Program-made: the position numbers and the translations under genes
Shown: positions 5,783 through 62,220 of the stretch, piece after piece
Numbering within the stretch: the stretch's first letter is position 1
How the letters are laid out: every line of letters begins with the position of its first letter
Assembly: GCA_965207805.1 (NCBI GenBank)
Contig: OZ242312.1
Coordinates: 1,068,748-1,132,747 of the forward strand
From: Gemmatimonadota bacterium
Lineage (GTDB): Bacteria > Gemmatimonadota > Gemmatimonadetes > Palauibacterales > Palauibacteraceae
DNA: 64,000 bases
Direction: 5' to 3'
Notes under the pieces: generated by a model
What the model was told of the DNA's origin: nothing
Seen by the model: the letters and a program-made list of their open reading frames with translations, nothing else
The model's database searches: none

Positions 5783-5903
5783 AGGTGGCGCGAGCGAAAA
5801 ACGGTAGAACCGGCCCGCGTCCGATGCAACCGGGACCGCTCGCGGGGTTCCGAGACAGCACGCTAGATTCGTGGACGCCAACCACCTCACCCGGAGCTGA
5901 CCG

Positions 5904-27589: not shown

Positions 27590-28748
27590 CCCCCGTCGGC
27601 GCGTCGGCGTTCTCTTCGGAGGCGAGTCGCCGGAGCACGAGGTATCGCTCCGCTCGGCGAAGAACGTCATCGAGGCGATCGACCGGGAGCGCTACGACAT
27701 CGTGCTCATCGGCATCGACCGCCGCGGCCGCTGGCATCTCGCCGACGAATCCCGCTTCCTGCGGCACGCCTCGGATCCGCGGCGCATTCGTCTCCCCCAC
27801 GCCCCGGTCAGGCTCGCCCTGACCCCCGGCCGCCGCCCCCGGATCGTACCTGTAGGCCCGACCGGCTCGGAAGATCCCGGCGAGGGCCCGGAGCCGGCCG
27901 AGCTGCCGGAGCTGGACGTCGTCTTTCCCGTCCTGCACGGCCCCTTCGGCGAGGACGGCACCGTCCAGGGGCTACTGCGGCTCGCGCACCTGCCGTTCGT
28001 CGGGCCCGGGATCCTCGGCTCGGCCGTATGCATGGACAAGGACGTGGCCAAGCGGCTGCTGCGCGACGCGGGCATCCCCGTCGCGCCCTTCATCACGGTC
28101 CTGTCCCGGGCCGAAGCCCCCCCCTGGGACGAGGCCGTGGCCGCGCTCGACGCCCCCATCTTCGTGAAGCCGGCGAACATGGGCTCTTCCGTCGGCGTGT
28201 CGAAGGTCGAGACGGACGCCGACTACCGGCGGGCGCTCGACGAGGCCTTCTCCTTCGACACCAAGGTGCTCCTCGAGCGGACGATCCGGGGCCGTGAGAT
28301 CGAGATCTCCGTGCTCGGGAACGAGACCCCCGAAGCCTCGATTCCCGGGGAGATCGCCCCTACGCACGCCTTCTACTCCTACGAGGCCAAGTACCTGGAT
28401 CACGACGGCGCGGACCTGCTCATTCCCGCGGACCTCGATGCCGAGACCACCGCGCGGGCCCGGGATATCGCCGTCCGCGCCTTCCGCACGCTATGCTGCG
28501 AGGGGATGGCGCGAGTCGACCTCTTCCTTGCGACGAGAGCCTGCGGCGCGTTGCCGGCGGGTTCGCTGGTGGTGAACGAGATCAACACTCTTCCGGGCTT
28601 CACGCGGATCAGCATGTACCCCAAGCTCTGGGATGCGACCGGCGTGTCCTACCCGGAACTCATCAACCGCCTCATCGGGCTCGCGATCGAGCGCGCGGAG
28701 CGCGACGAGCGGCTCGCCTCCGCGATCGACCTCCAGGGCGACGGATGA
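27582..28748 (+). CDS. ddl: D-alanine--D-alanine ligase
   Basis: RVGVLFGGESPEHEVSLRSA N-terminus, ATP-grasp motifs (FVKPANMGSSVG..., ...EINTLPGFT). GTG start at 27582 chosen; the track's upstream Met is out of the alignable region. Confidence 0.85.
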   Translation: MADPRRRVGVLFGGESPEHEVSLRSAKNVIEAIDRERYDIVLIGIDRRGRWHLADESRFLRHASDPRRIRLPHAPVRLALTPGRRPRIVPVGPTGSEDPGEGPEPAELPELDVVFPVLHGPFGEDGTVQGLLRLAHLPFVGPGILGSAVCMDKDVAKRLLRDAGIPVAPFITVLSRAEAPPWDEAVAALDAPIFVKPANMGSSVGVSKVETDADYRRALDEAFSFDTKVLLERTIRGREIEISVLGNETPEASIPGEIAPTHAFYSYEAKYLDHDGADLLIPADLDAETTARARDIAVRAFRTLCCEGMARVDLFLATRACGALPAGSLVVNEINTLPGFTRISMYPKLWDATGVSYPELINRLIGLAIERAERDERLASAIDLQGDG

Positions 28749-29626
28749 TGAGACGGCCCGCGTACCAGACCGGCGGGGTCCGCTTCGGCCACGGCTTCCC
28801 GATGAGTCGCTGGGTCCTGCGGCTCATGGTCGCGAACTTCGCGATCTTCCTCCTGATGGCGACGCGGCTCCTGCCCGCGGCGGCGATCGACTGGCTCGGC
28901 TTCGCCGTGCCCGGCTTCCTCACGCGCCCGTGGACCCTCGTCACCTACATGTTCGTGCATGGCGGCTTCATGCACCTGTTCATGAACATGCTCGCCCTCT
29001 TCTTCTTCGGTCCGCCGCTGGAGCAGAAGTGGGGCAGCCGTTTCTTCCTCCGCTTCTATCTCGCGACCGGGCTCGGCGGGGCCGCGTTCTCCGTGCTCCT
29101 CTACTCGCTCACCGGGCCGACGATCATGGTGGGCGCCTCCGGGGCGATCTTCGGCCTCCTCGTGGCCTTCGCCCTCAACTGGCCGGACGCGAAGATCTTC
29201 CTCTACTTCGTCTTCCCCGTGCCCGCGAAATGGTTCGTGGCCGCGCTCGGCGCCTTCACCCTCCTCTCGACCGTACAGGGGTCGGCGGACGGCGTGGCGC
29301 ACTGGGCGCACCTCGGCGGACTCGTGACCGGGTTCGTCTATCTCCGATACGGAGAACGCATCGGTCGCCTCGCCAACAGGATGCTCTACAAGGAGCGGCC
29401 GGCGCCCAGGCCGCGGAGGACGAAGCGTCCCGCGCCGCCCCCGCCCTCACCCCGCCGGCGACGCCGGGTGGACGGGGACTCCCTCGATGAAGTGGACCGG
29501 ATCCTCGACAAGATCCGCGCGGACGGCATGGACTCCCTCTCGGCGCGCGAGCGCGCCTTCCTCGACGAGGTGAGTCGGCAGTACAAGCAGACACAGGGGA
29601 CGGAGAAGAAGACCCGCACCCACTAG
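28745..29626 (+). CDS. Rhomboid-family intramembrane serine protease with basic/Pro-rich linker and C-terminal helical extension
   Basis: ATG overlapping the ddl stop (ATGA). GASGAIFG (catalytic Ser) and AHLGG (catalytic His) motifs, 6 TM. C-terminal ...PRPRRTKRPAPPPPSPRRRRR... followed by an acidic ~50-aa domain. Confidence 0.8.
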   Translation: MMRRPAYQTGGVRFGHGFPMSRWVLRLMVANFAIFLLMATRLLPAAAIDWLGFAVPGFLTRPWTLVTYMFVHGGFMHLFMNMLALFFFGPPLEQKWGSRFFLRFYLATGLGGAAFSVLLYSLTGPTIMVGASGAIFGLLVAFALNWPDAKIFLYFVFPVPAKWFVAALGAFTLLSTVQGSADGVAHWAHLGGLVTGFVYLRYGERIGRLANRMLYKERPAPRPRRTKRPAPPPPSPRRRRRVDGDSLDEVDRILDKIRADGMDSLSARERAFLDEVSRQYKQTQGTEKKTRTH

Positions 29627-29803
29627 GCGTTCGGCGGCCGGGTCCGGCGGCCGAGCCCGGCGGCTGGAGTTTTTCGCCGCCGGTTTCTACAATGTCCGCC
29701 CCGCGCGAGCCCCCGGCCGGGAGCGTCGCGCACGGAACGGCCCGTGGCCGGAGCAAGCGCCTGTCGCGGGTCGCCGGCCCCGGTTCCATCCCTGGAGGAG
29801 TAC

Positions 29804-31891
29804 ATGGCGCCTGCCGCCTCGGAATATCAAACGCCGAACCTTCGTAACGTCGTCTTCTTCGGGCACGGCGGGGCGGGGAAGACGACGCTCGTGGACTCCA
29901 TGTGCTACATCGCCGGCGGAGCCACGCGGAAGGGCGATGTCCAGAAGGGGAACGCGCTCACCGACTTCACGCCGGAAGAGACCGGCCACAAGATCTCGAT
30001 CAACCTCGCCGTCGCCCACGCCGTCCGGAACGACGTGCGGATCAACCTCATCGACACTCCCGGTTACCTGGATTTCCTGGGCGAAGTCATGGCGGGGATC
30101 CGCGTGGCGGACGCGGGCATCTGCGTCGTCGATGCGATCTCCGGCGTCGAAGTGGGGACAGAAAAGACCTGGGCCGCCGCGGAGGCCGCGAGCCTGCCGC
30201 GCGCCGTCTTCGTCTCGATGATGGACCGGGACAACGCGGACTTCCGCAACACGCTCGGCCAGATCCGGGACGAACTCACGTCCGCCGCGATGCCGGTCCA
30301 CGTCCCGGTCGGGGCGGGCCCCGACTTCAGCGGCTTCGTCGACCTCCTCGCGATGAAGGCCCACACCTTCAAGGGAGGGGACAAGGGGGCGGCCGGGGTC
30401 ACCGACGCGCCCGAGGACGTCGCCTCGGAGGTGGAGGACCTCAGGGAGGAACTCATCGAGGCGATCGTGTCGGGGGATGACGACCTGCTCGAAGCCTATT
30501 TCGAGGGAGAGGACCTCGATCCCGGCCGACTCGGCGAGGTGTTCGCGGAGGCGATCCGTTCCGGCGACATCGTCCCGGTGTTCTGCGGTTCATGCCAGAC
30601 GAGCGCGGGAGTGCCGGCCCTCATGGACCGCATCGTGGAGCTCTTCCCCTCGCCCGACCGCGCCGCGTCCCAGACCGCGCATGACGGGAACGGCGAAGTG
30701 TCGCTGGAGCCGGGAGCCGGGGCGCCCGTCGCGGCGCTCGTCTTCAAGACGACATCGGAACCCCACGTCGGCGACCTGAGCTATTTCCGCGTCTTCTCCG
30801 GCCGGATCACGAACGGCGTCACGCTCGCGAACCCCGACCGTTCCGCGAGCGAGCGCATCGCGCACCTCGCGATTCCGCACGGGGCGCGCCGCATCGACGT
30901 CGACGCGCTGAACCCCGGCGACATCGGGGTCGTGACGAAACTCAAGGACACGCACACCGGGGACACGCTCTGCGACAGCGGGAGCCGGCTCTCGTTCGGC
31001 GGGATCGAGTGGCCCCAACCCGATCTTTCCCTCGCCGTCACCGCCCGCACGCGGGCCGACGAGGACAAGATCGGCAGCGGCCTCGCGAAGCTGCACGAGG
31101 AAGATCCGACCTTCTCCTCCGGCTACGATCCCGAGCGGGGACAGACGATCATCCGCGGTCTGGGGGAGATCCACCTCAACATCTCGCTGGAGAAGATGAC
31201 CCGGAAGTACGGGGTCAACGTGGACACGCACCAGCCGAACATCGCCTACCGCGAGACGATCACGAAGACCGCGGAGGGGCAGGGGCGCCACAAGAAGCAG
31301 TCGGGCGGGCGCGGGCAGTTCGGCGACTGCCACATCCGGCTCAGCCCGTTGCCGCGCGGAGAAGGGTACAAGTTCGTCGACTCGATCAAGGGCGGCGTGA
31401 TCCCGACCAAGTTCGTCCCGGCCGTGGGGAAAGGGATCGGGGAGGCCTCGAACAGGGGGGTCCTCGCCGGCTACCCGCTCGTCGACTTCCAGGCCGAGTG
31501 CTACGACGGTTCGCATCACTCCGTGGACAGCTCGGACATCGCCTTCCAGATCGCGGGGTCCATCGCGTTCCAGAAAGTCGCGCGGGACGCGAACCCCGTG
31601 ATCCTCGAGCCGATCATGGAGGTCGAGGTCGAGACGCCCGAGGAGTACATGGGCGAGGTGATGGGAGACCTCAACCAGCGGCGCGGCCGCGTGCTCGGCA
31701 TGGATTCCAAGGGGCGGCGGCAGGTCGTGAAGGCCCACGTCCCCCAGGCGGAACTCTACAAGTACTCCGCCGCGCTGCGCTCCCTGACGCACGGAAAGGC
31801 GACGCACACGCGCAGCCTGGCTGCGTACGAGCAGGTTCCTCCGCATGTTCAGGAGAAGGTGATCGCCGAGTCGCAGCGCGACGACGACTAG
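29804..31891 (+). CDS. Elongation factor G-family GTPase (EF-G paralog, divergent G1 motif)
   Basis: SD ggaggag before ATG 29804. G1 = GHGGAGKTT (canonical AHIDAGKTT), G3 DTPGYLDF, G4 region; EF-G domains II-V, e.g. the conserved region IV/V segment HKKQSGGRGQFG. 695 aa. Confidence 0.8.
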   Translation: MAPAASEYQTPNLRNVVFFGHGGAGKTTLVDSMCYIAGGATRKGDVQKGNALTDFTPEETGHKISINLAVAHAVRNDVRINLIDTPGYLDFLGEVMAGIRVADAGICVVDAISGVEVGTEKTWAAAEAASLPRAVFVSMMDRDNADFRNTLGQIRDELTSAAMPVHVPVGAGPDFSGFVDLLAMKAHTFKGGDKGAAGVTDAPEDVASEVEDLREELIEAIVSGDDDLLEAYFEGEDLDPGRLGEVFAEAIRSGDIVPVFCGSCQTSAGVPALMDRIVELFPSPDRAASQTAHDGNGEVSLEPGAGAPVAALVFKTTSEPHVGDLSYFRVFSGRITNGVTLANPDRSASERIAHLAIPHGARRIDVDALNPGDIGVVTKLKDTHTGDTLCDSGSRLSFGGIEWPQPDLSLAVTARTRADEDKIGSGLAKLHEEDPTFSSGYDPERGQTIIRGLGEIHLNISLEKMTRKYGVNVDTHQPNIAYRETITKTAEGQGRHKKQSGGRGQFGDCHIRLSPLPRGEGYKFVDSIKGGVIPTKFVPAVGKGIGEASNRGVLAGYPLVDFQAECYDGSHHSVDSSDIAFQIAGSIAFQKVARDANPVILEPIMEVEVETPEEYMGEVMGDLNQRRGRVLGMDSKGRRQVVKAHVPQAELYKYSAALRSLTHGKATHTRSLAAYEQVPPHVQEKVIAESQRDDD

Positions 31892-31926
31892 CAAACGAGG
31901 ACCAGGACACGAGCGGGCGGTAGCCG

Positions 31927-32679
31927 GTGGCGGGCCATTCGAAGTGGTCGAAGATCAAGCGCCAGAAGGCGGTAACCGACAAGGCGAAGGGGAAGCTCTT
32001 CTCCAAGCTCGGTCGCGAAATCGCCGTGGCGGCGCGGGAGGGCGGAGGAGATCCGGACTTCAATCCGCGCCTGCGGACCGCGATCGACAACGCGAAGAGC
32101 CAGCGCATGCCCGCCGACAACATCGATCGCGCGGTGCGGCGCGGGACGGGCGACCTGCCGGGCGCGAGCTTCGAAGAGGTCACGCACGAGGGCTACGCGC
32201 CGGGCGGCGCGGCGCTCTACCTCGAGTGCCTGACGGACAACCCCCGGCGCACGCTGGCCGAACTCCGGCACCTGCTCGACAAGCGGGGCGGCAACCTGGG
32301 CCAGAGCGGCTCCGTCGCGTGGATGTTCGAGCGCAAGGGCCAGATCCTCGTACCCGCCGACGAGTGGGACGAGGACGCGGCGCTCGACGCGGCGCTCGAG
32401 GCGGGGGCGGAGAACTTCGAGTCCGAGGACGGGATGTACGTCGTGACGACGACGGCGCCGGACTTCCACGACGTGCTGGGTGCGCTGCGCGACGCCGGTG
32501 TCCCGGTGGAGGAGGCGGAACTCGCGATGGTGCCCAACAACACGGTGAAACTCGAGGGGCGCGACGCGGAGAAGGTGCTCGCCGTCCTGCACGCGCTCGA
32601 CGAGCACGACGACGTGCTGAAGGTGAATACGAACGTGGATCTGGAGGAGGCGGAGGGGGCGGACTGGGAAGCCCCCTGA
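31927..32679 (+). CDS. yebC: YebC/PmpR-family probable transcriptional regulator
   Basis: MAGHSKWSKIKRQKAVTDKAKGKLFSKLGREI... is the canonical YebC N-terminus. Confidence 0.9.
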   Translation: MAGHSKWSKIKRQKAVTDKAKGKLFSKLGREIAVAAREGGGDPDFNPRLRTAIDNAKSQRMPADNIDRAVRRGTGDLPGASFEEVTHEGYAPGGAALYLECLTDNPRRTLAELRHLLDKRGGNLGQSGSVAWMFERKGQILVPADEWDEDAALDAALEAGAENFESEDGMYVVTTTAPDFHDVLGALRDAGVPVEEAELAMVPNNTVKLEGRDAEKVLAVLHALDEHDDVLKVNTNVDLEEAEGADWEAP

Positions 32680-32681
32680 AG

Positions 32682-33158
32682 GTGCTCGGCGTCGACCCGG
32701 GCACGCGGGCGACCGGATACGGCTTCGTCGAAGGGCGCCGTCCGGGAGGGCCCGCGTATCGCCTCATCGAGTGCGGCGTCGTGCGGCCGCGCGGCGAGAA
32801 CCTCACGGAGCGCCTCGTGGACATCCACACCGCGGCGCTCGAACTCATCGACCGGCTCGAGCCGACGTGCGTCGCGATCGAAAGCGCCTTTCACGGACGG
32901 AACGCGCGCACCGCGCTCGTGCTCGGTCACGCGCGCGGCGTCCTCGTGCTCGCGGCCGGGCTGCGGGAACTGCCGGTGCACGAGTACGCGCCGCGCGAAA
33001 TCAAGAAGCGCGTCGTGGGGACGGGCGCCGCGAGCAAGGAGCAGGTCGGCTTCATGGTCAAGCACCATCTGCGGCTCGGCGAGCCGCCGCGTCCGGCGGA
33101 TGCGGCGGACGGCTGCGCGGTCGCGCTCTGCCACCTCCTCGGCGGGCCGATCCGGTGA
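32682..33158 (+). CDS. ruvC: Holliday junction resolvase RuvC
   Basis: GTG start. [14 protein letters not shown] (catalytic Asp), ...[10 protein letters not shown]..., C-terminal GCAVALCHL. Confidence 0.85.
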
Positions 33159-33757
33159 TCCGGCGTCTCCGGGGCGAACTCGTCGGGCGCGAGGAGGGCG
33201 TCGTCGAGGTCCTCACGGGCGACGGCGTCGGCTACGAGATCGGCGTGCCGCTCGGGCTCGCCGGACGCCTGCCGCCCGAGGGCTCCGAGGTCGAACTGCA
33301 CACCGTCCTCGTCGTGCGCGACGACGCCTTCGAGCTGTTCGGGTTCGAGACCCCGCGCGACCGCGAACTCTTCCAGCGGCTCCGCGTCCCGAGCGGCGTG
33401 GGCCCCCGGCTCGCGCTCGCGATCCTGGGTGCGCTGCGGCCCGAGCGCGTCGTGCAGGCGATCCGGGCCAAGGACCACCGCACGCTCCAGACCGTGAGCG
33501 GCGTCGGCAAGAAGACCGCCGAGCGCATCGTGATCGAACTCGCGGACAAGCTCGACGACCTCGGCGACATGGGCGACGACCCGGTGCCGGGCGGCGGGGT
33601 CGCCGCGGCGGCCGTACAGGCGCTGCGCGGCCTCGGCTACCCGCGCTCCCAGAGCGAGAACGCCGTCAGCCGGGCCCTGCAGGGGCTCGCGCAGGCGGGC
33701 GGGGACCCCGACGTCGCCGTCGAGGAACTCGTGCGCCGCGCGCTTCAGCACGTATGA
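33155..33757 (+). CDS. ruvA: Holliday junction DNA helicase RuvA
   Basis: GTGA overlap with ruvC. HhH region ([16 protein letters not shown]...[16 protein letters not shown]), C-terminal domain III. Confidence 0.85.
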
Positions 33758-53668: not shown

Positions 53669-53674
53669 CCGCCG

Positions 53675-53692
53675 CGTTCCCGCGGGAACGTC
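53675..53692. terminator. Palindrome GCGTTCCCGCGGGAACGT, 7 nt after the DAG-kinase stop in a convergent intergenic region; putative bidirectional terminator and copy 3 of the dispersed palindromic motif
   Basis: Read directly from the sequence; shares a 22-nt exact stretch with a site inside thiS and a 20-nt stretch with a site inside the CRTAC1-like gene. Confidence 0.5.
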
Positions 53693-53722
53693 CGTCGCTC
53701 CGGCCGCCCGCCGTGCCGCGGG

Positions 53723-55027
53723 TCAGCGGGCGTAGAGCAGGTAGGGGCGGCGGAGCGCCTCGAAGGCGGCGACATCAGCCGCCCATTCCGACGTGATTTC
53801 GTCGAGCGGGGCGCCGCGGTCGATGGCGAGCCGGAGCCGGTCCGAGCCCGCGAGACGGTCGAAGTGCCGCACCCTCCACTCCCACGCGTCGCCGGAGAGC
53901 CGGCGCGCGGCGAGCAGCGCCGCCACCGCGGTCCGCACCGGATCGTAGGCCGACCGGTCCGTGACCGTGAGGCGGATCCCCGAGATCTCCTCCCCCCCGA
54001 ACCTTCCGTCGCTCGGCGACTCCGGCGTGAAGGTGATCGCCCGGATCTCGACCCCCGGCAGCGATGGGGCCACGGCCCCGATCTCGGCCACCCAGGCCTC
54101 GCCGTCCAGCCACGGCGCGCCGAGCACCTGGAACGCGGTCGGCGTCCCGCGGCCGACGGAGAGGTTCGTCCCCTCGAACAGACAGGTGCCGGGATAGTGC
54201 GTGGCGCTCTCCAGCGAAGGCATGTTGAGCGACGGCGCGATCCAGGGAAGGCTCGTCTCATCGAACCAGCGGTCCGCGGACCAGCCCGCCGCCGGGACCA
54301 CGTGCAACTCCACCTCCACGCCGAACGCCCCCCGATACAGGCGCGCGAGTTCTCCCGCCGTGAGTCCGTGCCGCGTCGGCACCGGGTACAGGCCAACGAA
54401 GGTCGCGTAGGCGGGGTCCAGCACCGGGCCCTGCGTGAGGCCGCCGATGGGATTCGGGCGATCGAGAACAATCATGGGGATGCCCGCGCCCCCGGCCGCC
54501 TCCATCGCGAGCGCCATCGTCGACACGTAGGTGTAGTAGCGCGAGCCGATGTCCTGGATATCGAACGCGAGCACGTCGATCGAAGCGAGCATTTCCGGCG
54601 TGGGCGACCGCGTCTCGCCGTACAGCGAGTAGATCGGCAGCCCCGTCCCTTCGTCCGTCGCGTCGTCGATCGCGGAGCCCTCCGCCTCCGTGCCCCGGAT
54701 CCCGTGCTCGGGCGCGAAGAGCGCCGCGAGTTCCGCGCCCGCGTAGCCGTGCAGGAGGTCGATGGAACTCGTGCCGTCGCGCCCCACGCCGCTCCGGTTC
54801 GTGATCAGCCCCACCCGCCGCCCGTCGATGAGATGCGAGGAGTCGGCGAGCAGCACATCGATCCCGGGCCGCACCGCCGATACCGGCGCGTCCGCCGCAG
54901 CGGGTCCCCCCTCCGCCTCGCCGCCCGCCGCTCTCGCCCCCGCCGCGTCGGCTCCCGCTTCCGGCCCCCCGCACGCGGCGACAGTAAGAAGGAAAAGAAG
55001 AGAGAGGAAACCGGCGAGCGGATTCAT
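53723..55027 (-). CDS. DUF1343-family exo-beta-N-acetylmuramidase (NamZ/YbbC-like), lipoprotein
   Basis: Start at the internal Met (MNPLAGFLSLLFLLTVAACGG, lipobox). DUF1343 family by length and architecture; the homolog of B. subtilis YbbC/NamZ. Confidence 0.7.
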   Translation of the reverse strand: MNPLAGFLSLLFLLTVAACGGPEAGADAAGARAAGGEAEGGPAAADAPVSAVRPGIDVLLADSSHLIDGRRVGLITNRSGVGRDGTSSIDLLHGYAGAELAALFAPEHGIRGTEAEGSAIDDATDEGTGLPIYSLYGETRSPTPEMLASIDVLAFDIQDIGSRYYTYVSTMALAMEAAGGAGIPMIVLDRPNPIGGLTQGPVLDPAYATFVGLYPVPTRHGLTAGELARLYRGAFGVEVELHVVPAAGWSADRWFDETSLPWIAPSLNMPSLESATHYPGTCLFEGTNLSVGRGTPTAFQVLGAPWLDGEAWVAEIGAVAPSLPGVEIRAITFTPESPSDGRFGGEEISGIRLTVTDRSAYDPVRTAVAALLAARRLSGDAWEWRVRHFDRLAGSDRLRLAIDRGAPLDEITSEWAADVAAFEALRRPYLLYAR

Positions 55028-55145
55028 CTCGCCCTTCGTAGGTTCGGGGCAGCGAGCGCGACACGCGGGGCGGGCGGAGGTCGACATGGTGCGGAGACTA
55101 GAGACGTCGGACGACCCCCGAAAGCGGGACGCGAGGGGGCGGGGG

Positions 55146-58100
55146 ATGGCGCGGGGGCGGATGGCCGCCCCGAGGCCGGCGGTTGCCACGGGGCGGACGG
55201 TCGTCGCCCTCGGGCTGGTCGCGCTCCTGGCCCTCGGCTCGTTCGCCTGCCGCTCCTCCTCCGCTCCCGCCGCTTCGGGTCCCGGCGGCCCGGGTCTCGC
55301 CGCCTCGGGCGCCGCCGGTGCGGGTCCCGCCGGGGTGGGCGCCGCGAATGCCGCCCCCTCCGCCCCCGGTGCCGCCTCCGATCCCGCTGCGACCGGAGTC
55401 GCCGCCGCCGATCCCGCCGGTTCGGGCCCCTCCGCCCCCGGCGGCCGTCCGGTCGAGTCCGTCCTTTCCGCCGACGCACGGGCCTGGGTGGAGGAGACGC
55501 TCGCCGGCCTCAGCCTGCGGGAGCGGGTCGCGCAGCTCGTGATGGTGTGGATGAGCGGCGGCTACGCCCCGAGCGACGACGAAGAGTTCACGCGGATCCA
55601 GTCCCTCGTACGGGACGACGCGATCGGCGGGATCGTGATCTCGCTCGGGACCCCCCTCGGATACGCGGCGCGGTTGAACCGGCTGCAGGCTTCCGCCGAT
55701 GTGCCCCTGCTCGTCGGCGCGGACTTCGAGTCCGGCGCCGGGTTCCGCGTGAGCGGCGTGTTCGCGCTGCCGAACATGCTCGAGATGCCCGGCGCGACGG
55801 TCCTCCCCCCCGCGATGGCGCTCGGCGCGGCGGACGACGAGGACTACGCCTACTCCGCGGGCCGGATCACCGGCATCGAGGCCCGGGCCCTCGGCGTCCA
55901 CATCACCTTTTCGCCCGTGCTCGACGTCAACAACAACCCCGCCAACCCCATCATCAACACCCGCTCCTTCGGGGAGGATCCGCAGCGCGTGGCGGCGCTG
56001 GGCGCGGCGTTCATCCGGGGCGCGCGCGACGTCGGCCTCCTCGCCACCGCCAAGCACTTCCCCGGCCACGGAGACACCGGGACGGATTCCCACGTCGCCC
56101 TCCCCATCATTCCCGGCGACCGCGCCCGCCTCGACAGCCTCGAACTCGTCCCCTTCCGCCGCGCGATCGCGGAGGGCGTCGACGCGGTGATGACGGCCCA
56201 CGTCGCGGCCCCCGGCATCCTCGGCGCCGGCGCCCCGCCCGCCACGCTCTCGCCGTACTTCATGACGGACATGCTGCGCGACGACCTGGGCTTCGACGGC
56301 GTCCTCTTCACCGACGCACTCGACATGGCCGCGATCGCGGACGACTACGGGGCCAGCGAAGCCGCGATCCGCTCGCTGGAGGCCGGGAGCGACGTCCTGC
56401 TCATGCCGCGCGAGCCGCTGCGGGCGATCGCGGCCGTCGTCGGCGCCGTCCGTTCCGGCCGGCTCACCGCCGAGCGCATCGACGCCTCCGCCCGGCGCGT
56501 GCTGGAGTTGAAGGCGCGGGCCCGCCTGCACGAAGGCGCCGAGGTCGACCCCGACGCCATCCCGCGGCTCGTCGGCACCCAGTGGCACGAGTCCTTCGCC
56601 CGCGGGGTCGCCGCGCGCTCCATCACCCTCGTCCGCAACGAGGCCGACGTCGTGCCCCTCGAGTCGCGCTCCGTGCTGTCCGTGACCTTCGCCGGATCGA
56701 ACGACCTCGCCGCGGGACGCGTCTTCAACCGCGAACTCGGCCGCGCCATGCGGGTCCGCCGCGCCCGGATCGGGTTCGACACCCACTCCGCCGTCTACGA
56801 CTCGCTCCTCCGGCGCGCCCGCTCCGTCGACGCCGTGATCTTTTCCGCCTACGTCCGGCCGGGCGCCGCCAGCGATTCCACCGACCTCCCGGACGAGGTC
56901 CGTGGCTTCTTCGACCGCCTCGACGCCGCCGGCCGCACCTCCATGCTCGTCTCCTTCGGCAGCCCCTACCTCCTCACGTCCGTGCCGGAGGCGAAGACGT
57001 ACCTCATCGCGTGGGGCGGGGCGGACGCCTCGCAGGGAGCCGCCGCGCTCGCGCTCCTCGGCGCGCCGATTTCCGGCCGCCTGCCGATCTCTCTCCCGCC
57101 ACGCCACGCGCTCGGCGATGGCCTGGTCAGCGGGAGCCCGGAAGCGGAAGCGGGACCGGGGCCCATCAACACGCAGGGTCCCCCGCTCGAGGGCGGACGC
57201 ATGCGGCTGGCGTGGGAGGAGTGGCCCGTCAATGTGGGGATGGATGGAGATTCCCTCGCCCGCGTGGACCGGATCATCGATGCGGCGATCCGCGACGGGG
57301 CTGCGCCCGGCGCGGTGCTCGCGGTGGGGCGGGGAGACCGCGTCGTCCGGCTGCGCGGCTACGGAAACCTGGATTGGGCGTCTTCCGCCACGCTCCCGCC
57401 CGGGACCGCCGCGACCGATTCGAGCCTGTACGACCTCGCGTCGCTCACGAAGGTCGTCGCGACGACGACGGGCGTGATGCAGCTCATCGACAGCGGCCGT
57501 CTCTCCCTCGACACCCGCATCGGCGAGCACCTGCCGGAGTGGTCGCGGGGCTGGAAGCGCGACGTCACCGTCCGCCACCTGCTGACGCACCAGGGGGGCC
57601 TGCCGCCCTTCCTTCCCTTCTGGCGCACCCTCCGTGGAGAAGAGGCCTACCGCGAGGCATTCGCCGCCCTCGACCCCGATTACGAACCGGGGGAACGGAC
57701 GGTCTACTCCGACATCGGGTTCATGACGCTGGGGTTCCTGATCGAGGAGATCACGGGACAGCCCCTGGACTACTACCTGAACGAGTCCGTCTTCCGTCCG
57801 CTGCGGATGACGGAGACCTGGTTCGATCCGCCCCGCTCGCTGTACCGCCGCACGGCGCCGACCGAGGTGGATACCGTCTACCGGCACCGGCACGTGCACG
57901 GGGAGGTGCACGACGAGAACGCCCACGCGCTGGCCGGCGTGGCGGGGCACGCGGGACTCTTCTCATCGGCCCGGGACCTCTCGAAGTTCGCCGCCTGGAT
58001 CCTCGCCGCCGCGCGCGAAGGCCGGAATCTCGCCGCCGCCGCCCGCCCCGCGCCCGGGCCGTATACGCGTTCCTTCTCCGCCCGTCTCGACTCGCCCTCG

Positions 58101-58442
58101 CCGGAGACCGTCGCGCGGTTCACGGCGCGGGCCGCTCCCGCCTCGAGCCGGGCGCTGGGCTGGGACACCCCCTCGGGGCGCTCGTCGGCGGGGGACTACT
58201 TCGGTGAAGGCGCATTCGGGCACACCGGCTTCACCGGCACGAGCTTCTGGGTGGATCCGGAACTGGACCTCTTCGTCGTCCTGCTCACGAACCGCGTGAA
58301 TCCGACCCGGGACAACCGGAAACACATCGCGCTGCGGCGCGCGGTGCACGACGCCGTCGCGACCTCGATCCGCGACCAGCCGGTACGCCCCCGCGATCCG
58401 GGTGGCGCGGGCGGCCCGGCGCCCGAGGGACGCGACCGCTGA
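55146..58442 (+). CDS. Fusion protein: GH3 beta-N-acetylglucosaminidase (NagZ-like) + beta-lactamase-fold serine hydrolase (AmiE/PBP4-like)
   Basis: Single uninterrupted frame. GH3 N-domain (...KHFPGHGDTGTDSHV..., ...VMTAHV...), GH3 C-domain (...GRLPISLP), linker, then SxxK (ASLTKVV), YxN-like (YSDIG) and ...HTGFTGTSFWVDPE... Start uncertain (ATG 55086, 55146 or 55161); signal peptide ...VVALGLVALLALGSFAC. Confidence 0.8.
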   Translation: MARGRMAAPRPAVATGRTVVALGLVALLALGSFACRSSSAPAASGPGGPGLAASGAAGAGPAGVGAANAAPSAPGAASDPAATGVAAADPAGSGPSAPGGRPVESVLSADARAWVEETLAGLSLRERVAQLVMVWMSGGYAPSDDEEFTRIQSLVRDDAIGGIVISLGTPLGYAARLNRLQASADVPLLVGADFESGAGFRVSGVFALPNMLEMPGATVLPPAMALGAADDEDYAYSAGRITGIEARALGVHITFSPVLDVNNNPANPIINTRSFGEDPQRVAALGAAFIRGARDVGLLATAKHFPGHGDTGTDSHVALPIIPGDRARLDSLELVPFRRAIAEGVDAVMTAHVAAPGILGAGAPPATLSPYFMTDMLRDDLGFDGVLFTDALDMAAIADDYGASEAAIRSLEAGSDVLLMPREPLRAIAAVVGAVRSGRLTAERIDASARRVLELKARARLHEGAEVDPDAIPRLVGTQWHESFARGVAARSITLVRNEADVVPLESRSVLSVTFAGSNDLAAGRVFNRELGRAMRVRRARIGFDTHSAVYDSLLRRARSVDAVIFSAYVRPGAASDSTDLPDEVRGFFDRLDAAGRTSMLVSFGSPYLLTSVPEAKTYLIAWGGADASQGAAALALLGAPISGRLPISLPPRHALGDGLVSGSPEAEAGPGPINTQGPPLEGGRMRLAWEEWPVNVGMDGDSLARVDRIIDAAIRDGAAPGAVLAVGRGDRVVRLRGYGNLDWASSATLPPGTAATDSSLYDLASLTKVVATTTGVMQLIDSGRLSLDTRIGEHLPEWSRGWKRDVTVRHLLTHQGGLPPFLPFWRTLRGEEAYREAFAALDPDYEPGERTVYSDIGFMTLGFLIEEITGQPLDYYLNESVFRPLRMTETWFDPPRSLYRRTAPTEVDTVYRHRHVHGEVHDENAHALAGVAGHAGLFSSARDLSKFAAWILAAAREGRNLAAAARPAPGPYTRSFSARLDSPSPETVARFTARAAPASSRALGWDTPSGRSSAGDYFGEGAFGHTGFTGTSFWVDPELDLFVVLLTNRVNPTRDNRKHIALRRAVHDAVATSIRDQPVRPRDPGGAGGPAPEGRDR

Positions 58443-59875
58443 CCTCTCTCGACCTCGCGATCCTCGTCGTCTACCTCGGCGGGATCACCGCCTGGGGAGC
58501 GTGGCTCGGCAGGGGCGCGCGCGGGGGCGAGGAGTATTTTCTGGGCCGGCGCGACCTGCCGTGGGTCGTCGTCCTCCTGTCCGTCGTGGCGACGGAAACG
58601 AGCACGCTCACCTTCCTCTCGATCCCCGGCATCGCGTACGGAGGGTCGCTCGCCTTCGTGCAGATCGCGGCGGGCTACGTGCTCGGACGGATCGCCGTCG
58701 CCGCCTGGCTGCTGCCGGCGTATCGCGAGGGGCGGCTGCGGACGGCCTACGAACTGCTGGAGGCCCGTTTCGGGACGGAGACCCGACGGCTGACCTCCGG
58801 CATCTTCATGATCACGCGCCTCCTCGCGGATTCCGTGCGGCTCTTCGCGACGGCGATTCCGCTCACGCTCGTCACGGGGTGGCCGCTCATCGCCTCCGTG
58901 CTCGTGATCGGGGCCGTCACCTTCATCTATACCTTCATCGGCGGCATCCGCGCGGTCGTCTGGGTCGACGCCTCGCAGATGGCGCTCTACCTGGCCGGCG
59001 GGCTCATCGCGCTCGTCGTCCTCGGCGGCGCCGTGCCCGGCGGATGGCCCGAGATCCTCGCCCGCGCCGGGGAGGCCGGGAAGCTCACCGTCATCGACCC
59101 GTCGCTCGACTTCGGGCGACCCTACACGCTGTGGGCCGGACTCCTCGGCGGCGCCTTCCTCTCCATGGGTTCGCACGGCGCGGACCAGCTCATCGTCCAG
59201 CGCCTTCTCGCCTGCCGCGACCTCGCCGCGAGCCGCCGCGCCCTCGTCGGCAGCGGCTTCGCCGTCCTCCTCCAGTTCACCCTTTTCCTCTTCGTTGGCT
59301 TGGGCCTCTGGGCGTGGTACGACGGAGCCGCCTTCGTGCGCGCCGACGAGATCTTCGCCGGGTTCATCGTTGAAGCGCTCCCGGCCGGCGTCCGCGGCCT
59401 GCTCATCGCGGGCGTGTTCGCGGCCGCCATGTCTACGCTCTCCAGTTCGATCAACGCGCTCTCATCGGCGGCGGCCTACGACTTCTGGGCGGCGTCCCGT
59501 CCGGAGGCGGACGAGCGGCGGATCCTGCGCGTAGGGCGGATCTGGGCCGTGGTGTGGACGGCCCTGCTCGTGGCGGCGGCGATAGGGTTCATCCCCCTGA
59601 GCGAGGAGAGCACCGCGGTGGAGGTGTCGCTGGGGATCGCGTCGCTCGTCTACGGCGGGCTGCTGGGCGCGTTCGCGCTCGCCCGCTTCTCGCGCCGGGC
59701 CACGAGCCGCTCGACCCGGCTCGGGATCGTGTTCGGGATCGGATCCGTCACCGCGATATGGATCGGGGCGCGGGCCGCGGTCGCCTGGCCGTGGTTCGTC
59801 CTCATCGGCACGGCGGTCACGGTGGCGGTCGGCCTCCTCGCCGGCTCCCGCCGCGGTTCGCCCGCGTCGGAATGA
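58439..59875 (+). CDS. Sodium:solute symporter (SSS) family transporter
   Basis: Typical SSS N-terminus (LDLAILVVYLGGITAWGAWLGRG...EEYFLGRRDLPWVVVLLSVVATETSTLTFLSIPG) is encoded upstream of the first canonical start (GTG 58586). The only in-frame candidate is CTG 58439, overlapping the upstream TGA (cTGA). 12-13 TM predicted. Confidence 0.65.
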   Translation: MTSLDLAILVVYLGGITAWGAWLGRGARGGEEYFLGRRDLPWVVVLLSVVATETSTLTFLSIPGIAYGGSLAFVQIAAGYVLGRIAVAAWLLPAYREGRLRTAYELLEARFGTETRRLTSGIFMITRLLADSVRLFATAIPLTLVTGWPLIASVLVIGAVTFIYTFIGGIRAVVWVDASQMALYLAGGLIALVVLGGAVPGGWPEILARAGEAGKLTVIDPSLDFGRPYTLWAGLLGGAFLSMGSHGADQLIVQRLLACRDLAASRRALVGSGFAVLLQFTLFLFVGLGLWAWYDGAAFVRADEIFAGFIVEALPAGVRGLLIAGVFAAAMSTLSSSINALSSAAAYDFWAASRPEADERRILRVGRIWAVVWTALLVAAAIGFIPLSEESTAVEVSLGIASLVYGGLLGAFALARFSRRATSRSTRLGIVFGIGSVTAIWIGARAAVAWPWFVLIGTAVTVAVGLLAGSRRGSPASE

Positions 59876-62220
59876 AGTCGCGGGAAGTCGCGGGGATGAG
59901 GTCGCGGCGGGCGAAGTCGCGGGGAGCACGCCTGCTGGCGGCGACCGCCGTCCTCTGGGCCGCCGCCTGCGGCGATGGGGAGCCGGACGTCATGGGACCC
60001 GCCCCCGTGCCGAATCGCGCGCCGGAGGCGGTGGGGACGATCCCCGGGCGGACGCTGCCCGTCGGCGAGGCGGCGACGGTGGACGTGTCGGCCCACTTCC
60101 GCGACCCCGATGGCGACGCCCTTTCCTTCACGGCGGCATCGTCGAACGCGGATTTCGTCGGCGTTTCCCTGTCCGGCAGTACCGTCACCATCACCGCCGC
60201 CGCCCGGGGCGTGGCCACGATCACGGTGACCGCCAGCGATCCACGGGGTCTCGCCGCCCAGCAGCGCTTCGAGGTCACGGTGCCGAACCGGGCGCCCGAG
60301 GCCGGGGACGCGATCCCGGCGCAGACCCTGTTCGTCGGCGAGACGGCAACCGTGGACGCGTCCGCCCACTTCGGAGACCCGGACGGCGACGCGCTCACCT
60401 ACGCGGCGACCTCGTCGAACGCCGAGATCGCGACAGTCACGGTCTCCGGGGCCACGCTGACGATCCAGGCCATCGCCGCCGGCGCCGCGACGGTCACCGT
60501 GACCGCGAGCGATCCCGACGGCGCCGGGGCGGAGCAGCGCTTCGAGGTGACGGTGCCGAACCGCGAGCCGGAGGCCATCGGGACGTTGCCCCCGCGGACG
60601 CTCGCAGTGGGCGAGACGGAATCCGTCGTCGTGTCCGCGTTCTTCCGCGACCCGGACGGAGACTCGCTCGCCTACACGGCGGCCTCGTCGAATGCCGAGG
60701 TCGCCACCGTCTCCGTGTCGGGCGACTCGGTGGCGGTCACGGCGCTCGCGAAGGGCCTGGCGACGATCACCGTGACGGCCACCGACGGAGAAGGCCTGGC
60801 CGCGGAGCAGCGCTTCGAAGTCACGGTGCCGAACCGCGCGCCCGAGGCCGTCGGGACGCCGCCGCATCGGACGCTCGAGGTGGGCAAGACGGCATCCGTG
60901 GTCGTGTCCCCGTTCTTTGGCGACCCGGACGGAGACGCCCTCACCTACGCGGCGGCCTCGTCCAATGCCGAGATCGCCGCCGTCGCCGTGTCGGGCGACT
61001 CGGTGGCGGTCACGGCGGTCGCGAAGGGCCTGGCGACGATCACGGTGACGGCCCGCGACGAAGAGGGCCTGGCCGCGGAGGTGCGCTTCGAGGTCACGGT
61101 GCCGAACCGCGCCCCGGAGACCGGGGACGCCATCCCGGCCCAAACGCTGTTCGAGGGCGACACGGCATCCGTGGACGCGTCCGCCCACTTTCGGGACCCG
61201 GACGGCGACCCGCTCACCTACGCGGCCAACTCGTCCAGTCCCGATGTCGCGACGGTCGAGGTCTCCGGCGATACGCTGACGATCCGCGCGGCCGCCGCGG
61301 GCGTCGCGCTGGTGACGGTGACCGCGACCGATCCGGAGGAGGCCGCCGTCGCCACATCGTTCTCGGTGACCGTCGTGCCTCCCGCGACCCCATTCGAGAT
61401 CGAACTCGTGTTCGCGTCGTCCATGACCCGGGCGCAGGAGGCCGCGTTCCAACGGGCGGCGGAGCGTTGGATGGCGATCCTGGCGCCGACGGACCTCCCC
61501 GACGTGCGGCTGAACCGGACGCTGGGCTGCCCGGGCGATCCGTTCGAGCAGCATGTCGACACGGTCGACGACCTGATGATCGTGGTCTCGGTGGCCGAAA
61601 TCGACGGTCCGCTCGGGACCCTGGGACGCGCCGGGCCCTGCTGGGTCCGGACCGCGACATCGCTGCCCCTCTACGGCCGGATCCTGATGGACGCCGCCGA
61701 CCTCGACCGGCTCGAGACCCGCGACCTGGAGGAGGTGATCCTGCACGAAATGGGGCATGTGCTCGGCATCGGCCTCATCTGGGATCGTCTCGACCTGCTC
61801 CGGAACCCCGCCTCGGCAACGTCGACACCGGACACGCACTTCGCGGGCCCGCTGGCCATCGCGGCGTTCGACGAGGCGGGCGGCACGGGCTACCCCGGCG
61901 CCAAGGTGCCCGTGCACAACGAGGACGGTCAGGGATCGCGGAACAGCCACTGGAGGGAAGCCGTCTTGACGCTGGAACTCATGACCCCGTTCCAGCACCT
62001 CGGGGTGGCCGACCCGCTGAGCGCGATCACCATCCAGTCGCTCGCGGATCTCGGCTACGAAGTCGACCCGACACTGGCCGACCCCTTCCGGCTGCCGGGC
62101 GCGGACCTCGCGCGCGCCATCGAGGCCGCGCCCAGAATCCCCTACGGCGACGACATCTGGACCGGCCCCCTGATCTTCGTCGACCCCAACGGCCGCATCA
62201 CCCGCGTGATCCCCAGGTAA
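59872..62220 (+). CDS. Surface lipoprotein: 5 tandem Ig-like (He_PIG/cadherin-like) repeats + C-terminal leishmanolysin-like (M8) zinc metallopeptidase domain
   Basis: ATG overlapping the SSS stop (ATGA). Lipobox ...LWAAACGDG. Five 91-aa repeats each containing DPDGDxL(T/S)(Y/F). C-terminal HEMGHVLGIG (HExxH) plus ...SHWREAVLTLELMTP matching the M8 third-His/Met-turn region. Confidence 0.75.
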   Translation: MKSREVAGMRSRRAKSRGARLLAATAVLWAAACGDGEPDVMGPAPVPNRAPEAVGTIPGRTLPVGEAATVDVSAHFRDPDGDALSFTAASSNADFVGVSLSGSTVTITAAARGVATITVTASDPRGLAAQQRFEVTVPNRAPEAGDAIPAQTLFVGETATVDASAHFGDPDGDALTYAATSSNAEIATVTVSGATLTIQAIAAGAATVTVTASDPDGAGAEQRFEVTVPNREPEAIGTLPPRTLAVGETESVVVSAFFRDPDGDSLAYTAASSNAEVATVSVSGDSVAVTALAKGLATITVTATDGEGLAAEQRFEVTVPNRAPEAVGTPPHRTLEVGKTASVVVSPFFGDPDGDALTYAAASSNAEIAAVAVSGDSVAVTAVAKGLATITVTARDEEGLAAEVRFEVTVPNRAPETGDAIPAQTLFEGDTASVDASAHFRDPDGDPLTYAANSSSPDVATVEVSGDTLTIRAAAAGVALVTVTATDPEEAAVATSFSVTVVPPATPFEIELVFASSMTRAQEAAFQRAAERWMAILAPTDLPDVRLNRTLGCPGDPFEQHVDTVDDLMIVVSVAEIDGPLGTLGRAGPCWVRTATSLPLYGRILMDAADLDRLETRDLEEVILHEMGHVLGIGLIWDRLDLLRNPASATSTPDTHFAGPLAIAAFDEAGGTGYPGAKVPVHNEDGQGSRNSHWREAVLTLELMTPFQHLGVADPLSAITIQSLADLGYEVDPTLADPFRLPGADLARAIEAAPRIPYGDDIWTGPLIFVDPNGRITRVIPR
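60004..61371 (+). repeat. Five tandem 273-nt (91-aa) coding repeats inside the lipoprotein gene; copies 3 and 4 are ~90% identical at the DNA level
   Basis: Repeat units begin with ccgaaYcgNgNgccNgag (PNRAPEA/PNREPEA) at about 60004, 60277, 60550, 60823, 61096. Long exact stretches are shared between units 3 and 4 (gtgtcgggcgactcggtggcggtcacggcg; tcgcgaagggcctggcgacgatcac). Confidence 0.8.

Follow-up and report, generated by a model that had tools for sequence, protein, structure and literature searches.

The stretch of DNA analysed here (the window, 64 kb of contig OZ242312.1) has a GC content of about 71% throughout, and its genes, mapped by third-position GC, gave a continuous map. It comes from a marine member of the Gemmatimonadota, which homologues named by NCBI put near Candidatus Palauibacter, and contains a locus of three genes: a lipoprotein gene of the NamZ family on the minus strand, a divergently oriented gene on the plus strand that fuses a NagZ-type GH3 glycosidase to a beta-lactamase-fold serine hydrolase, and then, on the same strand, a gene for a transporter of the sodium:solute symporter (SSS) family (Table 1). 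A preliminary description, made from the sequence of the window, had reported these three genes and four motifs, all of which we found in place.

Table 1. Features of the locus, with positions in the window.
Feature	Position	Strand	Basis
namZ, exo-beta-N-acetylmuramidase-like (GH171/DUF1343) lipoprotein, 434 aa	53723..55027	-	Pfam, PDB matches
Spacer of the divergent namZ-fusion gene pair, 58 bp	55028..55085	.	Start positions, including the N-termini of relatives
nagZ-amiE-like fusion gene, 1118 aa	55086..58442	+	Pfam, NCBIfam, homologues, N-termini of relatives
Basic N-terminal extension, hydrophobic signal segment and conserved Cys (…LLALGSFAC), probable lipoprotein signal	55086..55250	+	Sequence, relatives
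Low-complexity Ala/Gly/Pro/Ser tether, about 65 aa	55251..55445	+	Sequence
GH3 catalytic (N-terminal) domain, NagZ type	55515..56510	+	PF00933; alignments to 6k5j, 3sql, 3bmx
NagZ signature KHFPGHGDTGTDSH	56052-56093	+	Motif shared in alignments to B. subtilis YbbD, 6k5j, 3sql
FTDALDM	56307-56327	+	Aligns with VTDALNM of B. subtilis NagZ/YbbD (3bmx)
GH3 second (alpha/beta sandwich) domain, divergent	56622..57104	+	PF01915 (weak); 6k5j alignment
Beta-lactamase-fold serine hydrolase domain, AmiE/PBP4B type	57264..58343	+	PF00144, NCBIfam PBP4B, YfeW BLASTP
SLTK (SxxK; residue 766)	57441-57452	+	Aligns with the E. coli YfeW motif
YSD (residue 854)	57705-57713	+	Aligns with the E. coli YfeW motif
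HTGFTG (HTG1026)	58221-58238	+	Aligns with HTGxTG of E. coli YfeW
SSS family transporter, 478 aa, proposed MurNAc and/or GlcNAc importer	58439..59875	+	SSF, TIGR00813, synteny
CTGA junction: SSS CTG start overlapping the fusion TGA stop	58439..58442	+	Sequence, relatives

The two hydrolases

NamZ matched both Pfam profiles of its family far above their cut-offs, i.e., NamZ_N with 263.2 bits (E-value 1.6e-78, cut-off 26.9) and NamZ_C with 161.4 bits (3.4e-47, cut-off 25). It also aligned with the structures of two orthologues from Bacteroides fragilis, 4k05 over residues 44-432 (3.8e-75) and 4jja (2.9e-52). The N-terminus (MNPLAGFLSLLFLLTVAAC) is a signal peptide with the canonical lipobox VAAC, after which comes an Ala/Gly/Pro-rich tether. 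These matches and the lipobox confirm the divergent DUF1343 lipoprotein of the preliminary description.

The fusion gene has two possible starts. The ATG at 55086 is the start position used by its relatives, and the conserved N-terminus (MVRRLET..RKR) favours it. The alternative ATG at 55146 would give a protein of 1098 amino acids and widen the spacer to 118 bp. Both lengths agree with the fused polypeptide of about 1100 amino acids that had been described as NagZ (GH3) joined to an AmiE-like beta-lactamase-fold protein, and the Pfam profiles Glyco_hydro_3 and Beta-lactamase indeed match within one open reading frame (ORF). The basic extension encoded at 55086-55145 (MVRRLET..GPRKR…), common to the relatives, forms an n-region of unusual length for a lipoprotein signal and overlaps the divergent promoter region. 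A promoter and terminator scan of the namZ-fusion spacer was uninformative, finding no sigma-70-like site, and in the alignment of this intergenic region conservation was confined to close, near-identical relatives.

The cysteine after the hydrophobic stretch is kept in nearly all full-length relatives of the fusion protein that we inspected (SFAC, AFAC, LAAC, LGGC, VVGC), and the lipoboxes are more canonical in the more distant ones. The fusion protein is therefore likely to be a lipoprotein. Given the lipobox of NamZ, this conserved cysteine and the tethers, both hydrolases are probably anchored to a membrane outside the cytoplasm. The nearest homologues of the fusion protein are P0001 (94% identity over 100% of the query) and P0003 (97% identity, partial, over 90% of the query). 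More than 7000 homologues are present in public data, annotated merely as 'serine hydrolase' or 'GH3 N-terminal domain-containing protein', and both domains occur in all of the best 120.

The catalytic GH3 domain matched Glyco_hydro_3 (PF00933) with 291 bits (1.4e-86). The NagZ signature, defined as KH(F/I)PG(H/L)G-x4-D(S/T)H, is present as KHFPGHGDTGTDSH, the GH3 motif already quoted in the preliminary description. In B. subtilis NagZ, the nucleophile Asp lies in the TDAL segment, which has its counterpart here in FTDALDM. The second GH3 domain gave only a match under the cut-off of Glyco_hydro_3_C (PF01915, 8.7e-4). The alignment with the two-domain N-acetylglucosaminidase 6k5j nevertheless spans residues 21-550 of the GH3 part, i.e., both domains (6e-85), and that with B. 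subtilis NagZ/YbbD (3bmx) has an E-value of 1.6e-59. The score for the NCBIfam NagZ equivalog PRK05337, 166.1 bits, is below the cut-off of 207, but this model describes the single-domain cytoplasmic NagZ, and YbbD, with its two domains, offers the better comparison.

The C-terminal domain (C-domain) matched the Pfam profile Beta-lactamase (PF00144) with an E-value of 7.3e-67, and the motifs SLTK, YSD and HTGFTG that had marked it as a serine hydrolase are all present in the right order. Among the beta-lactamase-fold models of NCBIfam, PBP4B scored highest (159.8 bits), about three times the scores of LipE (57.3), class C beta-lactamase (51.8) and AmpH (49.5). The domain aligned end to end with Escherichia coli YfeW/PBP4B by BLASTP (30% identity, E-value 2e-50). 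The yfeW gene of E. coli K-12 is the third of murQ-murP-yfeW, the operon for catabolism of N-acetylmuramic acid (MurNAc) beside murR. No solved structure lies near the C-domain, the best PDB match having 71.5 bits. The preliminary description had considered that the domain might group with class C beta-lactamases or esterases; the PBP4B score and the YfeW alignment do not bear out such an identity.

The transporter and its CTG start

Mechanical ORF calling starts the SSS gene at GTG 58586, which gives a protein of 429 amino acids in which the first 18-50 SSS profile positions have no counterpart. The open frame upstream of this codon encodes LTSLDLAILVVYLGG…, in agreement with the N-termini of homologues. 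Its 49 codons showed nonsynonymous and synonymous rates (dN and dS) of 0.01-0.05 and 0.29-0.59, respectively, and thus a dN/dS of about 0.03-0.1, indicative of strong purifying selection. We rejected the GTG start because it drops the first transmembrane segment, while the upstream codons are under selection and match homologues from their first residue on. At the conserved N-terminus the window has neither ATG nor GTG nor TTG, and the initiation position is a CTG within the CTGA junction. The same junction occurs in four relatives, L090, L091, L092 (at about 5854-5857) and L004 (13162-13165). The start position reads TTGA in the close relatives L001-L003 and ATG in others, e.g., proteins P0125 and P0129.

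From the CTGA overlap, the conserved start position and the purifying selection on the 49 codons, we conclude, at the level of sequence, that the transporter is translated from CTG through coupling to the upstream fusion gene. The translational coupling proposed in the preliminary description thus stands as far as the overlap with the fusion stop codon is concerned, but the mechanically called ORF start is wrong and the coupling needs a non-canonical CTG. Because the start is non-canonical, gene callers have shortened several database entries to 426-433 amino acids. A programmed -1 frameshift producing a triple fusion of the hydrolases with the transporter was also considered and rejected, because the start codon varies among relatives (ATG, TTG or CTG) and the tail of the upstream hydrolase is variable.

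Read from the CTG, the transporter matched Pfam SSF (1.6e-35, 123.2 bits, profile positions 1-360) and TIGR00813 (202.8 bits, cut-off 184); full-length membership in these families holds only for this reading. No substrate-specific model attained its cut-off. The protein scored far under the cut-offs of PutP (72.5 against 515.5 bits) and PanF (75.5 against 328), which places it outside the proline and pantothenate clades whose membership would have contradicted the preliminary description.

Conservation of the neighbourhood

Contigs of relatives with 54-97% identity in the fusion protein show the same pair, the fusion gene and then the SSS gene, and a divergent namZ precedes it in every relative having the upstream flank. 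Scanning an alignment of four SSS sequences over one genome per species gave at least 80 loci, in Gemmatimonadota, Acidobacteriota, Planctomycetota, Verrucomicrobiota, Bacteroidota (including Balneolaceae and Ignavibacteria-like metagenome-assembled genomes) and others. By searching six-frame ORFs with seed proteins (BLAST), we counted neighbours within 10 kb of the SSS gene in the 80 listed loci, and separately in the 35 of them with full flanks (9 kb or more to either side). A MurK-like kinase was found in 55 loci (29 of those with full flanks), a beta-lactamase-fold gene in 42 (28), NamZ in 41 (27), GH3 in 38 (23), MurQ in 17 (12) and NagB in 14 (6). GH3 and the beta-lactamase fold occurred in one ORF in 27 loci and were adjacent in four more.

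Several of these neighbours were verified. MurQ of L040 and NagB of L011 score above the NCBIfam equivalog cut-offs, and MurQ adjoins the SSS gene in Acidobacteriota and Planctomycetota. The nearest solved structure to the kinase of the relatives is the MurNAc/N-acetylglucosamine (GlcNAc) kinase 8zo3 (4e-32); its top NCBIfam model, under the cut-off, is a GlcNAc kinase. In L005, a relative with 54% identity, a BcrAD_BadFG kinase gene follows the SSS gene with a 4-nt overlap. Among the best 150 SSS cluster representatives, eight are predicted single chains that join the transporter to partner domains (P0258, P0269, P0273, P0274, P0277, P0305, P0331, P0375): four SSS-NamZ, one NamZ-SSS and three SSS-Beta-lactamase, one of which also carries NamZ. 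No such chain occurred in the 80 listed genomic loci. The synteny, the verified MurQ and NagB, the structural match of the kinase and the single-chain fusions tie this SSS subfamily to the salvage of MurNAc and GlcNAc. Hence, the multi-phylum synteny and the predicted chains back the earlier suggestion that the released amino sugars are taken up by an SSS transporter rather than by a phosphotransferase system (PTS).

The composition of the cluster varies. Other Gemmatimonadota have a longer version with NamZ, the GH3-beta-lactamase gene, often NagB, the SSS gene and a MurK-like kinase (L010-L012, L016, L020-L023, L031, L036, L069, L072, L077, L085). The Palauibacter lineage (the window, L004, L090, L091) retains just NamZ, the fusion gene and the SSS gene. 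Of the partners in MurT-type operons the window thus holds NamZ only, and the kinase and MurQ occur in relatives. In contrast to Acidobacteriota, none of the listed Gemmatimonadota loci has MurQ within 10 kb. In L005 (8308-10011), L031, L042 and L077 the fusion gene is directly preceded by another GH3 gene, a stand-alone, two-domain tandem paralogue. Five Acidobacteriota loci (L050, L053, L054, L076, L086) have two beta-lactamase-fold genes each, one stand-alone beside NamZ on the minus strand and the other fused to GH3, which suggests that the two differ in how they remove or trim peptides. In L092 (2626-5857, a contig of 2x coverage) the fusion gene appears as two ORFs, a GH3 one of 300 amino acids and another of 752, probably through an assembly frameshift and not biology.

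The flanks of the locus in the window are housekeeping genes. Upstream lie lgt, TamA/TamB-like genes and a YegS-type lipid kinase gene; downstream are a lipoprotein gene and then uvrA. In the Palauibacter lineage the trio is bordered by the lipid kinase gene on one side and, ahead of uvrA, by a variable region on the other. In the window this slot holds the lipoprotein gene (59896-62220, lipobox region LWAAAC), whose product has five immunoglobulin-like/Big_9 repeats and a leishmanolysin-like (M8) metalloprotease domain. It holds a D12 methyltransferase and a leucine-rich repeat protein in L004, and DUF3226 with an AAA ATPase in L090; in L091 it is empty.

Known systems and the proposed pathway

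In Bacillus subtilis, NagZ, AmiE and NamZ act sequentially from the non-reducing end, and AmiE, a beta-lactamase-fold protein encoded in the same operon context, is a proven MurNAc-L-Ala amidase (bioRxiv 10.1101/2021.12.02.470905, PMC8054146). The operon murQ-murR-murP-amiE-nagZ-namZ (ybbIHFEDC) encodes the same three extracytoplasmic exo-acting activities that we predict here, and its NagZ/YbbD is a two-domain GH3 lipoprotein with which the GH3 part of the fusion shares the signature motif. The two systems differ in that NagZ and AmiE are separate proteins in B. subtilis but the NagZ and AmiE-like domains form one polypeptide in the window, and in that import relies on the PTS transporter MurP in the former but on an SSS transporter, with no adjacent murQ or murR, in the latter. 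Since the host, unlike B. subtilis, is diderm, the enzymes are presumably periplasmic lipoproteins.

The closest parallel for import is in Tannerella forsythia, where Tf_MurT (Tanf_08375), a non-PTS MurNAc importer of the sodium-symporter superfamily, needs the kinase MurK (PMC5790795) and is encoded beside namZ1, murK and murQ (Tanf_08370-08385; PMC5790795, PMC7670621). The namZ1-murT-murK-murQ operon likewise places NamZ beside a transporter of this superfamily, and relatives of the window resemble it in that the SSS gene is followed by the BcrAD_BadFG kinase and/or MurQ. Their kinase is nearer to 8zo3 than to T. forsythia MurK/K1058 (2.5e-6), and none of the 80 listed loci is from Tannerella. 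A NagZ-AmiE fusion is not described for the T. forsythia operon, and the window, unlike T. forsythia, has no kinase or etherase nearby. We propose, by analogy, that the SSS transporter is a functional counterpart of MurT.

The fusion itself also has a precedent. RmNag3 of Rhodothermus marinus, which has a signal peptide, a GH3 part and a C-terminal beta-lactamase domain, was shown to be a beta-N-acetylglucosaminidase that hydrolyses chitobiose and chitopentaose, and similar genes occur in Salinibacter and Rhodohalobacter (PMC6987092). It shares the three-domain architecture of our fusion protein (GH3 domains 1 and 2, beta-lactamase domain) but adjoins neither NamZ nor an SSS transporter gene, and its beta-lactamase domain was not read as an AmiE-type amidase (PMC6987092). 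In E. coli, YfeW has motifs of the same types as the C-domain and sits in the MurNAc operon, but it is a stand-alone protein, the transporter is the PTS protein MurP and NagZ is cytoplasmic. The novelty implied by the preliminary description was therefore overstated, as both the fusion (PMC6987092) and the sodium-symporter route for MurNAc (PMC5790795, PMC7670621) have precedents. Our literature search found no description of this cluster in Gemmatimonadota.

We consider it likely that the locus is a compact module for the salvage of peptidoglycan fragments, combining extracytoplasmic hydrolysis with import by the SSS transporter. The domain identities, the motifs, the gene overlap and the cross-phylum synteny are observations; we infer the substrates, the order of reactions, the Na+ coupling and the source of the peptidoglycan (own wall or foreign). 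Working from the non-reducing end, two membrane-tethered proteins would take glycan strands or muropeptides apart. The tethered NagZ domain would take off GlcNAc, and the fused C-domain, as a MurNAc-L-Ala amidase by analogy with B. subtilis AmiE, would strip the stem peptide from the terminal MurNAc thus exposed. The fusion of the two makes sense because the amidase would act on the product of NagZ. NamZ would then free MurNAc, and the transporter, made by reinitiation at the CTG, would import MurNAc and/or GlcNAc. In relatives, the adjacent MurK-type kinase would phosphorylate the sugars before processing by MurQ and NagB.

A rival reading concerns the second of these steps. The C-domain could be a PBP4B-type DD-carboxy- or endopeptidase that trims or un-crosslinks stem peptides and leaves the MurNAc-L-Ala bond uncut, the other steps being unchanged. 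Its top curated model and its identity with YfeW fit this activity, as do PDB neighbours such as the R61 DD-peptidase and alkaline D-peptidase. YfeW binds penicillin, and weak DD-carboxypeptidase activity has been reported for it. Yet the proven amidase AmiE has the same fold and operon context, NamZ requires a peptide-free MurNAc end, and the conserved cluster has no other amidase, which together make a DD-peptidase unlikely. That the domain is instead an antibiotic-resistance beta-lactamase or an esterase, joined to a glycosidase by chance, is scarcely credible: it has the Pfam match, the SxxK, YxD and HxG motifs and weak class C and esterase matches in its favour, but class C models gave 30-52 bits against cut-offs of 415-870 (PBP4B reached 160), and a chance event is hard to reconcile with the conservation across phyla of both the fusion and its NamZ/SSS/kinase neighbourhood.

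Other readings concern the substrate. A locus for chitin, chitooligosaccharides or general GlcNAc use, with the transporter importing GlcNAc only, would agree with the activity of RmNag3, with the presence of NagB and lack of MurQ within 10 kb in the Gemmatimonadota relatives, and with the top NCBIfam model of the kinase. We regard it as quite improbable, since all characterised NamZ proteins are specific for MurNAc (bioRxiv 10.1101/2021.12.02.470905, PMC8054146), chitin breakdown has no use for the beta-lactamase-fold partner, the cluster has no chitinase, the MurQ that adjoins the SSS gene in Acidobacteriota and Planctomycetota is bona fide, and 8zo3 is a dual MurNAc/GlcNAc kinase. The transporter might also be unrelated to the hydrolases and import proline, pantothenate or another small solute, as it is a general member of the SSS superfamily with no substrate-specific match at cut-off. 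Its distance from PutP and PanF, the overlap of its gene with the hydrolase stop codon, the linkage of kinase, MurQ, NamZ and beta-lactamase-fold genes to the SSS gene in most listed loci, and the predicted single chains with NamZ or beta-lactamase domains make this very improbable.

Some observations nevertheless count against the salvage module. The C-domain is well under the PBP4B equivalog cut-off (159.8 against 385 bits), and E. coli PBP4B is described as a penicillin-binding protein rather than as an amidase. The activity of RmNag3 on chitooligosaccharides leaves room for a role in GlcNAc or chitin use. The preliminary description had proposed a search for murQ, murP, anmK and nagA; BLAST with seeds from E. 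coli and the relatives detected none of these in the 64 kb window, nor nagB, nagK or a MurK-like kinase. A Pfam scan of 43 of the 49 predicted genes of the window revealed no recycling genes outside the locus, the six genes at 27597-33757 being covered by the seed BLAST only. None of the best 120 homologues of the Longimicrobiales kinase was on a contig of the Palauibacter lineage, which is weak negative evidence. Finally, three members labelled as Bacteroidota (L017, L029, L057) have no recycling neighbours within 10 kb of the SSS gene.

In a stronger version of the salvage module, hydrolases and transporter would be coupled obligatorily: in this lineage the transporter would be produced only by termination-reinitiation at the conserved CTG of the CTGA, and the enzymes may dock to it for channelling. 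The predicted SSS-NamZ, NamZ-SSS and SSS-beta-lactamase(-NamZ) chains found elsewhere hint at such docking and channelling of MurNAc or GlcNAc, but we hold this version to be doubtful. If true, it would tie the synthesis of the transporter to that of the NagZ-AmiE lipoprotein, and such a hydrolase-transporter 'salvage complex' is not described for peptidoglycan recycling.

The finding is useful but ordinary, as no part of the locus falls outside a known family and many uncultured bacteria carry the same set; it reveals no new mechanism. It extends the exo-lytic NagZ/AmiE/NamZ pathway of Bacillus and the non-PTS amino-sugar import route of Tannerella to Gemmatimonadota, Acidobacteriota, Planctomycetota and further phyla, most of them uncultured, in which the fused NagZ-AmiE-like enzyme is the common form. 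It provides a functional annotation for thousands of entries named 'serine hydrolase' or 'GH3 domain-containing protein' and for an unnamed SSS subfamily, and bears on the recycling or scavenging of cell-wall necromass by abundant soil and marine bacteria. The most unusual details are the conserved CTG start in the CTGA overlap and the predicted transporter-hydrolase single chains elsewhere, which leave room for a tighter coupling between hydrolases and transporter than currently described.

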